Below, one piece after another: positions 2,931 through 5,386 of a DNA stretch of 5,386 nucleotides. The DNA comes from Enterobacteria phage MED1, in sequence record KJ997912.1. The stretch is one strand, 5' to 3'. Under the pieces are notes generated by a model, which worked only from the letters and a program-made list of their open reading frames with translations, was not told where the DNA came from and searched no databases. A program made the position numbers and the translations under genes. The first letter of the stretch is position 1; every line of letters begins with the position of its first letter.

Positions 2931-3917
2931 ATGTTTGGTGCTATTGCTGGCGGTATTGCTTCCGCTCTTGCTGGCGGCGCCATGTCTAAATTGTTTGGAG
3001 GCGGTCAAAAAGCCGCCTCCGGTGGCATTCAAGGTGATGTGCTTGCTACCGATAACAATACTGTAGGCATGGGTGACGCTGGTATTAAATCTGCCATTCA
3101 AGGCTCTAATGTTCCTAACCCTGATGAGGCCGCCCCTAATTTTGTTTCTGGTGCTATGGCTAAAGCTGGTAAAGGGCTTCTTGAAGGTACGTTGCAGGCT
3201 GGCACTTCTGCCGTTTCTGATAAGTTTCTTGATTTGGTTGGACTTGGTGGCAAGTCTGCCGCTGATAAAGGAAAGGATACTCGTGATTATCTTGCTGCTG
3301 CATTTCCTGAGCTTAACGCTTGGGAGCGTGCTGGTGCTGGTGCTTCCTCTGCTGGTATGGTTGACGCCGGATTTGAGAATCAAAAAGAGCTTACTAAAAT
3401 GCAACTGGACAATCAGAAAGAGATTGCCGAGATGCAAAATGAAACTCAAAAGGAGATTGCTGGCATTCAGTCGGCGACTTCCCGTCAGAATACGAAAGAC
3501 CAAGTATATGCACAAAATGAGATGCTTGCTTATCAACAAAAGGAGTCTACTGCTCGCGTTGCGTCTATTATGGAAAACACCAATCTTTCCAAGCAACAGC
3601 AGGTTTCTGAGATTATGCGCCAGATGCTTATACAGGCTCAAACGGCTGGCCAGTATTTTACTAACGACCAAATCAAAGAGATGACTCGCAAGGTTAGCGC
3701 TGAAGTTGACTTGGTTCATCAACAGACGCAGAATCAGCGGTATGGTTCTTCTCATATTGGTGCTACTGCTAAGGATATTTCTAATGTCGTCACTGATGCT
3801 GCTTCTGGTGTGGTTGATATTTTTCATGGTATTGATAAAGCTGTTGCCGACACTTGGAACAATTTCTGGAAAGACGGTAAAGCTGATGGCATTGGCTCTA
3901 ATTTGTCTAGGAAGTAA
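2931..3917 (+). CDS. H: Minor spike / DNA pilot protein H (328 aa)
   Basis: ORF 2931..3917; RBS GAGGTGA at 2921-2927 overlaps the G stop; Gly-rich N-terminus ([25 protein letters not shown]) and Q/E/K-rich central coiled-coil region typical of phiX174 H. Confidence 0.95.
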
Positions 3918-3926
3918 CCGTCAGGA

Positions 3927-3955
3927 TTGACACCTTTCTAATTGTGTGATTTCAT
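3927..3955 (+). promoter_or_regulatory. Candidate promoter pA in the H-A intergenic region
   Basis: -35 TTGACA at 3927-3932; TG at 3947-3948 followed by a weak -10 TTTCAT at 3950-3955 (extended -10 arrangement, 17-bp spacer). Position agrees with the known pA of phiX174; exact start site not determinable from sequence. Confidence 0.45.
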
Positions 3956-3980
3956 GCCTCCAAACTTTGGAGGCTTTTTT
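3956..3980 (+). terminator. Rho-independent terminator TH: GCCTCCAAA/TTTGGAGGC hairpin followed by a T6 run, immediately before the A start codon
   Basis: Inverted repeat 3956-3964 / 3966-3974, then TTTTTT at 3975-3980; the 3-prime arm contains GGAGG (3969-3973), which also serves as the Shine-Dalgarno sequence of gene A (ATG 3981). Confidence 0.6.
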
Positions 3981-5386
3981 ATGGTTCGTTCGTATTACCC
4001 TTCTGAATGTCACGCTGATTATTTTGACTTTGAGCGTATCGAGGCTCTTAAACCTGCTATCGAGGCCTGTGGCATTTCTACTCTTTCCCAATCTCCGATG
4101 CTTGCCTTCCATAAGCAGATGGATAACCGCATCAAGCTCCTTGAAGAGATTTTGTCATTTCGTATGCAGGGCGTTGAGTTCGATAATGGTGATATGTATG
4201 TCGACGGTCATAAGGCTGCTTCTGATGTTCGTGATGAGTTTGTGTCTGTTACTGAAAAGTTAATGGATGAATTGGCACAATGTTACAACGTGCTCCCCCA
4301 ACTTGATATTAATAACACTATAGACCACCGCCCCGAAGGGGACGAAAAATGGTTTTTAGAGAACGAGAAGACGGTTACGCAGTTTTGCCGTAAGCTGGCT
4401 GCTGAACGCCCTCTTAAGGATATTCGAGATGAGTATAATTACCCCAAAAAGAAAGGTATTAAGGATGAGTGTTCAAGATTGTTGGAGGCCTCCACTATGA
4501 AATCGCGTAGAGGCTTTACTATTCAACGTTTGATGAATGCAATGCGTCAGGCTCACGCTGATGGCTGGTTTATCGTTTTTGACACTCTTACGCTGGCTGA
4601 TGACCGCTTAGAGGCGTTTTATGATAATCCCAATGCTTTGCGTGACTATTTTCGTGATATTGGTCGTATGGTTCTTGCTGCCGAGGGTCGTAAAGCTAAT
4701 GACTCACACGCCGACTGCTATCAGTATTTTTGTGTGCCTGAGTATGGTTCAGCTAATGGCCGTCTTCATTTCCATGCGGTGCATTTTATGCGGACACTTC
4801 CTACAGGTAGCGTTGACCCTAATTTTGGTCGTCGGGTACGCAATCGCCGCCAGTTAAATAGCTTGCAAAACACGTGGCCTTATGGTTACAGTATGCCTAT
4901 CGCAGTTCGCTACACGCAGGACGCTTTTTCACGTTCTGGATGGTTGTGGCCTGTTGATGCTAAAGGTGAGCCGCTTAAAGCTACCAGTTACATGGCTGTT
5001 GGCTTCTATGTGGCTAAATACGTTAACAAAAAGTCAGATATGGACCTTGCCGCTAAAGGTCTAGGAGCTAAAGAATGGAACAACTCACTAAAAACCAAGC
5101 TGTCGCTACTTCCCAAGAAATTATTCAGAATCCGAATGAGCCGCAACTTCGGGATGAAAATGCTCACAATGACCAACCTGTCAATGGAATGCTTAATCCA
5201 GCTTACCAAGCTGGGTTACGACGCGACGCCGTTCAACCAGATATTGAAGCAGAACGCAAAAAGAGAGATGAGATTGAGGCTGGCAAAAGTTACTGTAGCC
5301 GACGTTTTGGCGGCGCAACCTGTGACGACAAATCTGCTCAAATTTATGCGCGCTTCGATAAAAATGATTGGCGTGTCCAACCTGCA
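3981..5386 (+). CDS. A: Replication initiator protein A (HUH rolling-circle endonuclease; 513 aa in total), N-terminal about 468 codons; the ORF runs off the window end and finishes at 1..136
   Basis: ATG 3981 preceded by GGAGG; no in-frame stop to position 5386; HUH motif HFHAVH encoded at 4767-4784; catalytic tyrosine pair in VGFYVAKYVNKK (Tyr codons 5007-5009 and 5019-5021, residues 343 and 347). Confidence 0.95.
   Translation, partial: MVRSYYPSECHADYFDFERIEALKPAIEACGISTLSQSPMLAFHKQMDNRIKLLEEILSFRMQGVEFDNGDMYVDGHKAASDVRDEFVSVTEKLMDELAQCYNVLPQLDINNTIDHRPEGDEKWFLENEKTVTQFCRKLAAERPLKDIRDEYNYPKKKGIKDECSRLLEASTMKSRRGFTIQRLMNAMRQAHADGWFIVFDTLTLADDRLEAFYDNPNALRDYFRDIGRMVLAAEGRKANDSHADCYQYFCVPEYGSANGRLHFHAVHFMRTLPTGSVDPNFGRRVRNRRQLNSLQNTWPYGYSMPIAVRYTQDAFSRSGWLWPVDAKGEPLKATSYMAVGFYVAKYVNKKSDMDLAAKGLGAKEWNNSLKTKLSLLPKKLFRIRMSRNFGMKMLTMTNLSMECLIQLTKLGYDATPFNQILKQNAKREMRLRLAKVTVADVLAAQPVTTNLLKFMRASIKMIGVSNL
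4299..4328 (+). other. Viral-strand origin of replication (30-nt A-protein recognition sequence); nick site between G4305 and A4306
   Basis: CAACTTGATATTAATAACACTATAGACCAC at 4299-4328 is the canonical phiX174 ori, located inside gene A at the same coordinates as in the reference. Confidence 0.85.
4497..5386 (+). CDS. A*: A* protein (341 aa in total): internal in-frame translation initiation within gene A; continues to 1..136
   Basis: In-frame ATG at 4497 preceded by GGAGG at 4484-4488 (8-nt spacing); corresponds to the known A* start of phiX174 (MKSRRGF...). Confidence 0.75.
   Translation, partial: MKSRRGFTIQRLMNAMRQAHADGWFIVFDTLTLADDRLEAFYDNPNALRDYFRDIGRMVLAAEGRKANDSHADCYQYFCVPEYGSANGRLHFHAVHFMRTLPTGSVDPNFGRRVRNRRQLNSLQNTWPYGYSMPIAVRYTQDAFSRSGWLWPVDAKGEPLKATSYMAVGFYVAKYVNKKSDMDLAAKGLGAKEWNNSLKTKLSLLPKKLFRIRMSRNFGMKMLTMTNLSMECLIQLTKLGYDATPFNQILKQNAKREMRLRLAKVTVADVLAAQPVTTNLLKFMRASIKMIGVSNL
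4850..4900 (+). promoter_or_regulatory. Approximate location of promoter pB (inside gene A, upstream of B)
   Basis: Weak sigma70-like elements only (TTGCAA at 4863-4868, then TTACAG/TACAGT around 4886-4892); placed mainly from knowledge that pB lies about 190 nt upstream of B in phiX174. Exact hexamers uncertain. Confidence 0.3.
5075..5386 (+). CDS. B: Internal scaffolding protein B (120 aa in total), embedded in gene A in a different frame; continues at 1..51
   Basis: ATG 5075 with AGGAG at 5063-5067; translation MEQLTKNQAVATSQE... with the conserved C-terminus after the wrap; the N-terminal third carries several substitutions versus the reference as recalled. Confidence 0.9.
   Translation, partial: MEQLTKNQAVATSQEIIQNPNEPQLRDENAHNDQPVNGMLNPAYQAGLRRDAVQPDIEAERKKRDEIEAGKSYCSRRFGGATCDDKSAQIYARFDKNDWRVQPA

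Follow-up and report, generated by a model that had tools for sequence, protein, structure and literature searches.

Predicted nesting of the pA start site and the gene A ribosome-binding site in the T_H terminator hairpin of a phiX174-clade microvirus, and its probable consequences for transcripts of different origin

Background

The closest described system is that of phiX174 itself, where promoter pA and terminator T_H, both situated between genes H and A, are treated as a single combined element, pA-T_H, by Logel and Jaschke (2020; 10.1101/2020.03.05.979765). The legend to Fig. [quoted passage not shown] According to the RNA-seq data reported there, the net change in transcription across pA-T_H is 0.29-fold, and T_H is estimated to block about 70%, which would make it the strongest terminator of phiX174, a value that is confounded by the presence of pA. 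Among the four phiX174 terminators T_H also has the best hairpin score, -13.2 (Zhao et al. 2012). The pA promoter has been described as weak and its mRNA as unstable, and the A protein, the replication initiator, is needed in small amounts and is harmful if over-produced.

Rho-independent terminators that overlap a downstream ribosome-binding site, and hairpins that sequester a Shine-Dalgarno sequence (of the type studied by de Smit and van Duin), are known classes. Like the sequestering hairpins, pA-T_H has a stable hairpin containing the Shine-Dalgarno; unlike them, it is opened by no trans factor, ligand or ribosome movement, and the position at which the RNA starts would decide between the masked and the open state. 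Attenuators, and the terminators of leader-peptide and riboswitch systems, likewise have a terminator hairpin directly upstream of a regulated start codon, but pA-T_H has no antiterminator helix, leader peptide or aptamer and is not a member of that class. The pA-T_H architecture was reportedly already present in the first phiX174 and G4 sequence papers, those of Sanger et al. in 1977 and Godson et al. in 1978, respectively. A literature search for explicit statements on start sites located inside terminators returned none. The element described below is real, conserved and already known, i.e. it is a classical phiX174-type element, and nothing in its architecture is new to the field.

The genome and its relatives

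The window, meaning the whole stretch of DNA that was analysed (5386 nt), has the gene order and the coordinates of phiX174, with gene H at nt 2931–3917 and gene A beginning at nt 3981 (open reading frame list and sequence). Over its whole length it shares 96–96.6% identity with the phiX174-clade microviruses PJNS001, ID34, NC1, NC51 and phiX174 (S13, ID34 and NC1 are at about 96.5%), and judged by this similarity it is a phiX174-clade microvirus genome. No whole-window match above 96.6% was found in the phage collection (August 2025 release). The comparison set consisted of GenBank phage records, and a search of IMG/VR with protein H gave just three loci. For the alignment of the spacer between genes H and A, 13 phiX-clade genomes were used, with PJNS001, a rotated record, left out. 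Despite the ceiling of 96.6% on whole-genome identity, the 63-nt spacer matches those of S13, ID34, NC11 and NC41 exactly. Its boundaries are as follows.

nt 3915–3917, plus strand: stop codon (TAA) of gene H, from the open reading frame at nt 2931–3917 and the sequence; H lies at nt 2931–3917 in phiX174 and relatives
nt 3918–3980, plus strand: H-A intergenic spacer, 63 nt, between the H stop and the A ATG
nt 3981–3983, plus strand: start codon (ATG) of gene A, the replication initiator; A is annotated from nt 3981 in phiX174, S13, ID34 and others

The pA promoter and its start site

The first-pass annotation had noted, within this spacer, a TTGACA, a weak -10 extended by TG, a hairpin followed by six T residues, and a GGAGG in the 3' arm of that hairpin. 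All of these are present in the sequence at exactly the positions given, and those that belong to the promoter are the following.

nt 3927–3932, plus strand: -35 hexamer of pA, TTGACA (6/6 consensus positions), read from the sequence and invariant in 13 phiX-clade genomes
nt 3945–3948, plus strand: TRTG motif extending the -10, with TGTG here but TATG in laboratory phiX174, read from the sequence; the TG is nt 3947–3948
nt 3950–3955, plus strand: probable, degenerate -10 hexamer of pA, TTTCAT, read from the sequence, invariant in the clade and directly adjoining the hairpin
nt 3962, plus strand: transcription start (A) of pA, placed by homology to phiX174, inside the hairpin and 7 nt after the -10

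The -35 and -10 hexamers are separated by 17 nt, the spacer ending in TGTG and A3949, immediately before TTTCAT. This last hexamer agrees with TATAAT at T1, T3, A5 and T6, lacks the key A at position 2 and was rejected by the consensus scan. The missing A at position 2 explains why a generic promoter scan of the window did not report pA, and it makes 'weak -10' a fair label. As a composite, TTGACA-N17-TTTCAT has a single occurrence in the window, where 0.01 would be expected. Another sequence, TTGACA-18-TATTAT (11/12) at nt 320–349, matches the promoter consensus best in the window and lies at the position of phiX174 pD.

The start site can be placed with reference to phiX174, the RefSeq entry of which (NC_001422.1) carries a misc_feature 'transcription start site' at nt 3962. 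The two genomes share a coordinate frame and are identical across nt 3950–3964, and by homology the pA start of the window is also expected at nt 3962. This residue is the first base after the GCCTCC of the hairpin 5' arm and the seventh after the -10. It had been suggested from the sequence that a transcript starts within, or next to, its own terminator, and both the RefSeq feature and the Fig. S2 legend of Logel and Jaschke bear this out for phiX174.

Mutational data on the phiX174 promoter are reported in a saturation-mutagenesis preprint (10.64898/2026.07.25.740675), which gives the -35 as nt 3927–3932, the TRTG motif as nt 3945–3948 and the -10 (TTTCAT) as nt 3950–3955. As reported there, 15 of the 35 detrimental pA mutations fall in the -35, while 11 of 18 mutations in the -10 and 9 of 10 in the TRTG motif are detrimental. 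The sole tolerated change in the latter is A3946G, which is the allele carried by the window, and position 3946 is an A/G polymorphism within the phiX clade in the 13-genome alignment.

The T_H hairpin, T-run and Shine-Dalgarno

The remaining signals of the spacer are contained in its last 25 nt.

nt 3956–3963, plus strand: 5' arm of the T_H hairpin, GCCTCCAA, from the predicted folds; invariant in 13 clade genomes
nt 3964–3966, plus strand: hairpin loop, ACT here and ATC in phiX174, from fold and alignment; the sole part of the hairpin that varies in the clade
nt 3967–3974, plus strand: 3' arm of the T_H hairpin, TTGGAGGC, from the predicted folds; invariant in the clade
nt 3969–3973, plus strand: Shine-Dalgarno of gene A, GGAGG, read from the sequence; wholly inside the 3' arm and 7 nt before the ATG
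nt 3975–3980, plus strand: T6 tract, read from the sequence; starts at the base after the stem

The hairpin, GCCTCCAA/ACT/TTGGAGGC (nt 3956–3974), has a stem of 8 bp with 5 G-C pairs (6 if both core orientations are counted) and a loop of 3 nt. As RNA it is predicted to fold with -12.8 kcal/mol (z = -4.0), a value equalled by 1 of 200 shuffles. Of six terminator-like hits in the window it is listed first and has the longest stem; as a whole, the window has no more hits of this kind than shuffles do. With its GC-rich stem, short loop and U-tract, it has the sequence marks of a Rho-independent terminator.

Two parts of the structure have double roles. In the 5' arm, nt 3956–3961 are positions -6 to -1 of pA, and nt 3962–3963 would be the first two transcribed bases, given the start placed by homology. 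The T6 tract is both the U-tract of the putative intrinsic terminator T_H and the spacer between the Shine-Dalgarno and the ATG. In phiX174 the gene A ribosome-binding site is likewise annotated at nt 3969–3973 (10.64898/2026.07.25.740675), and the same preprint gives the share of detrimental T_H mutations as 63% (17/27, as reported) in the 3' stem and 13% (3/23, as reported) in the 5' stem.

Conservation within the phiX clade

Across the 13 phiX-clade genomes no variation occurs in the -35, the -10, either stem arm or the Shine-Dalgarno. Nor is any residue of the T-run substituted, and in WA11 the run is one residue longer (T7). Twelve columns of the spacer alignment vary, 11 of them in the 25 spacer, flank and loop positions with no assigned signal and one at the R of TRTG (hypergeometric P = 6.5e-5, 13 genomes). 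Relative to laboratory phiX174, the window has seven substitutions in the spacer (nt 3935, 3937, 3939, 3946, 3949, 3965 and 3966), all of which are promoter-spacer or loop positions or the R of TRTG; every base of the signals is otherwise identical and the order and coordinates are the same. At these seven sites the window carries the common wild alleles, as found in S13, ID34, NC11 and NC41. Since the stem is invariant within the clade, it provides no covariation evidence at this level.

The same layout in the G4 and alpha3 groups

Comparison with other genera extends the pattern. The H-A junctions of the G4 group (Gequatrovirus) and the junctions preceding gene A in the alpha3 group (Alphatrevirus) have the same succession of TTGAC(A/T), a spacer of 17–18 nt, a -10 adjoining a GC-rich arm of 6 bp, a Shine-Dalgarno 3' arm, a T-run and the ATG of gene A, with hairpins of -11 to -16 kcal/mol. 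In G4, NC2 and NC19 this reads TTGACT-N18-TAATAT, adjoined by GCCTCC-loop8-GGAGGC-TTTTC-ATG, and ID18 and Lilleen are similar. In the alpha3 group it reads TTGACA-N18-TATATT, adjoined by GCCCTC-loop-GAGGGC-T5-NNN-ATG. These elements differ from that of the window in their stronger -10s (TAATAT, TATATT), their loops of 8–13 nt and their T4–T5 runs, and the alpha3 stem is GCCCTC/GAGGGC. Start sites are unannotated in the G4 and alpha3 records, and are predicted here from the position of the -10.

The end of the -35 and the start of the hairpin are 23–24 nt apart in the phiX, G4, Lilleen and alpha3 groups (21 nt in ID18), a distance that is thus nearly constant even though the spacers and loops cannot be aligned between groups. 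A good -10 (TAATAT, TATATT or TATAGT) adjoins the arm in each of the non-phiX lineages. As a consequence of the conserved distance the -10 lies directly against the arm in every case, with the predicted start immediately beyond the latter. Compensatory changes between genera are seen at two stem pairs, from GCCTCC/GGAGGC to GCCCTC/GAGGGC, with a U·G intermediate in ID32, and despite these changes the 3' arm is Shine-Dalgarno-like in every group. Selection for nothing more than termination would account for such compensatory changes just as well.

In the alpha3 group genes H and A are about 750 nt apart, and within this space the nested layout is kept and is present twice. One copy precedes gene A. 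The second lies directly after gene H (nt 1–209 of L018, the alpha3 sequence, and the first ~210 nt of L020–L025), with TTGACA at 4–9, TATG at 23–26 and a hairpin at 28–59 (-14 to -21 kcal/mol) that has AGGAG in its 3' arm and is followed by a T-run. This module precedes an ORF of 47 codons (MKPAHRL...), unannotated in these records, the product of which is 83–89% identical among seven phages while the DNA has many synonymous differences.

A natural deletion was observed in NC35 (L022, about nt 690–730, with gene A at 730), where the module before gene A has lost some 29 nt, among them the -10 and the hairpin's 5' arm, and retains GAGGA, T5 and the ATG. Its local fold is only -2.9 kcal/mol, compared with about -14 in relatives. 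This deletion indicates that the half of the module with the promoter and terminator is dispensable when another copy sits upstream.

Predicted folding of read-through and pA RNA

In read-through contexts of 160–400 nt, the core of the hairpin has a predicted pairing probability of at least 0.98, with a value of 1.00 for the six core pairs. Opening the Shine-Dalgarno is predicted to cost about 12.5–13.6 kcal/mol in read-through RNA and 2.6–6.6 kcal/mol in RNA that starts at nt 3962, these being equilibrium values in which co-transcriptional kinetics and the helicase action of the ribosome are ignored. A cost of about 13 kcal/mol, as predicted here, lies in the range that abolishes initiation. 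The open state of pA RNA is unaffected by the choice of start from nt 3959 to 3964. In 12 of the 12 modules tested, including those of other groups, the masked and the open Shine-Dalgarno differ in predicted cost by 3–11 kcal/mol.

The Shine-Dalgarno of pA RNA is predicted to be comparatively open, yet not fully so. The residual cost of 2.6–6.6 kcal/mol arises because it pairs weakly with a sequence near the start of gene A.

nt 3999–4006, plus strand: CCUUCUGA, codons 7–9 of gene A, with which the Shine-Dalgarno of pA RNA may weakly pair instead, from the fold of nt 3962–4010

The fold of nt 3962–4010 has -7 kcal/mol and is no better than shuffles (z = -0.43). The pairing of the Shine-Dalgarno with nt 3999–4006 was considered as a second regulatory helix and rejected, as shuffles do equally well, and the match to CCUUCUGA is probably fortuitous. 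A second GAGGC, at nt 4041–4045, is able to capture the 5' arm once it is freed. In phiX174 this capture brings the computed opening cost of the Shine-Dalgarno down to 6–8 kcal/mol, and the re-pairing of the freed 5' arm with it accounts for the smaller masking difference in that genome (3 kcal/mol, in one context).

The predicted minimum-free-energy structures of RNA containing the hairpin included no alternative antiterminator fold. A permissive Rfam search of nt 3800–4100 gave no significant match, the best being Phe_leader at 19.1 bits (gathering threshold 55, E = 0.72).

It had been proposed from the sequence that formation of the terminator would sequester the A ribosome-binding site, and that translation of A is under structural control. 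The folds divide this proposal in two. Sequestration is predicted for read-through RNA, at the opening costs given above, and falls away for pA RNA, where the 5' arm would be absent; structural control likewise does not extend to the pA transcript, and may apply to read-through RNAs only.

A hairpin whose action probably depends on the origin of the RNA

Taken together, it is probable that the H-A spacer is a composite pA-T_H element in which the action of the hairpin is set by where the RNA began. Polymerase arriving from the strong upstream promoters pB and pD would transcribe the hairpin (nt 3956–3974) and the U6, and would mostly terminate there. Polymerase binding at pA would instead start at A3962, seven bases past the -10. 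With a start just past GCCTCC, pA RNA would never contain the 5' arm (six G-C-rich pairs) and so would not terminate at the T6, which lies 14–19 nt downstream of its own start. Such a transcript should be immune to T_H, and its GGAGG would not be locked in a hairpin. Termination, the pA start and the hairpin-free pA RNA are established for phiX174, and their transfer to the window is by the identity of every signal.

The final part of the scheme concerns those upstream RNAs that escape termination. These would keep the stable hairpin, with the Shine-Dalgarno of gene A buried in it, and A would then be expected to be translated almost wholly from pA mRNA, which is weak and short-lived. In this way the amount of replication initiator would be shielded from the heavy late transcription of the capsid genes. 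Masking is irrelevant on terminated transcripts, because they end before gene A, and we infer that it can matter only on transcripts from upstream promoters that read through T_H. That masking occurs on these is suggested by the predicted thermodynamics and by the conserved layout, and agrees with the expression of A from an unstable transcript of a weak promoter, and with its harmful effect when over-expressed. One 25-nt hairpin would thus have opposite outcomes according to the origin of the RNA, stopping or silencing RNAs from upstream while being invisible to those from the embedded promoter. Such an arrangement would help to explain how A can be held at a low level when capsid genes on the same circular DNA undergo heavy transcription. 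It also bears on the design of phiX-like genomes, refactored and machine-generated ones included, in which an exact register of -10, 5' arm and start site must be preserved.

A broader reading is that the rule of placing the Shine-Dalgarno in the 3' arm of a terminator, with transcription beginning immediately beyond its 5' arm, reflects a selected, portable insulation module of the Bullavirinae and no accident of packing, one through which a downstream gene is translatable only from its own weak promoter and is silent on read-through RNA. The module would have been duplicated in the alpha3 group, with the second copy driving the 47-codon ORF. We put this forward tentatively, as a proposal whose chances fall slightly short of even.

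Alternative explanations

Of the other explanations, the one that survives best is pure compaction, in which the hairpin is just a terminator and a stabiliser of 3' ends, its overlap with the Shine-Dalgarno follows from the shortage of room in a 5.4-kb genome, and masking has no regulatory effect. The mutational data from phiX174 fit this well. The 5' stem is largely tolerant of mutation in the reported scan (10.64898/2026.07.25.740675), from which it follows that loss of the hairpin, and with it of both termination and masking, carries only a small fitness penalty in the laboratory setting of that scan; for the sensitive 3' stem, the Shine-Dalgarno by itself is a sufficient explanation. Overlap with ribosome-binding sites or ori(-) is seen at other terminators of phiX174 as well, upstream transcripts of this phage are known to be stabilised by its terminators, and termination alone accounts for the covariation of the stem. 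Against this, the alpha3 phages keep the -10, hairpin, Shine-Dalgarno and T-run nested in the same register, twice, despite having ~750 nt available, and this weakens the view that the overlap is a mere by-product of compaction. The 23–24 nt geometry, with its predicted start just past the 5' arm, is also conserved across genera, and with a predicted hairpin probability of about 1 on read-through RNA some loss of A translation is hard to avoid. We therefore regard compaction as an unlikely full account, though the most credible of the alternatives.

A role at the level of DNA is less likely still. The hairpin could form a stem-loop in single-stranded viral DNA, or could belong to the 'incompatibility/reduction' sequence of the H-A region, and so engage a limiting host factor for complementary-strand synthesis. 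As DNA, the plus strand folds into the same hairpin (-8.3 kcal/mol, z = -4.7). When cloned, the H-A region is reported to hinder synthesis of the complementary strand by infecting phage (van der Avoort 1982, 1984, as cited in PMC3606162), and substitutions arise in this region in parallel during chemostat evolution. The unequal mutational sensitivity of the two arms, however, does not fit a purely structural DNA element, and the conserved Shine-Dalgarno-like 3' arm, the T-run and the register of the -10 are features of RNA and transcription. A DNA-level role is compatible with the origin-dependent hairpin proposed above and does not exclude it, but the asymmetry of the arms and the conserved transcription and translation register argue against its being the main constraint.

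The idea that the hairpin is a switch on the pA transcript itself, forming to attenuate transcription and sequester the A ribosome-binding site and opening for expression, would account for the combination of hairpin, U-tract and Shine-Dalgarno overlap and for the weak, sub-threshold resemblance to an attenuator leader (Phe_leader, 19 bits against 55), but is very improbable, as the annotated start at nt 3962 takes the 5' arm off pA RNA, all starts from nt 3959 to 3964 give the same open state, the minimum-free-energy folds contain no competing antiterminator or anti-sequestor helix (the sole alternative pairing has z = -0.43), there is no leader ORF and no ligand-binding-like structure, and the Rfam match is far below threshold. 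An attenuator or riboswitch assignment was rejected on the same grounds, the Phe_leader match being at chance level and an antiterminator helix being absent.

Antisense features of the region

The stem is a near-perfect palindrome, and the minus strand of nt 3956–3980 therefore forms the same hairpin, with A6 before it and ATGAAATC, but no T-run, after it. Antisense RNA would not be terminated intrinsically by this structure, even though one predictor gave the minus-strand hairpin as a terminator in phiX174. A candidate antisense promoter predicted in phiX174 by Logel and Jaschke, 'pR12' (TTTAAGAGCCTCGATACGCTCAAAGTCAAAAT; nt 4021–4052, minus strand), is unchanged in the window, and transcripts from it would cross the gene A start and pA-T_H in antisense. 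The H-A region is also spanned by a minus-strand ORF of 63 codons (nt 4112–3921), which is probably spurious.
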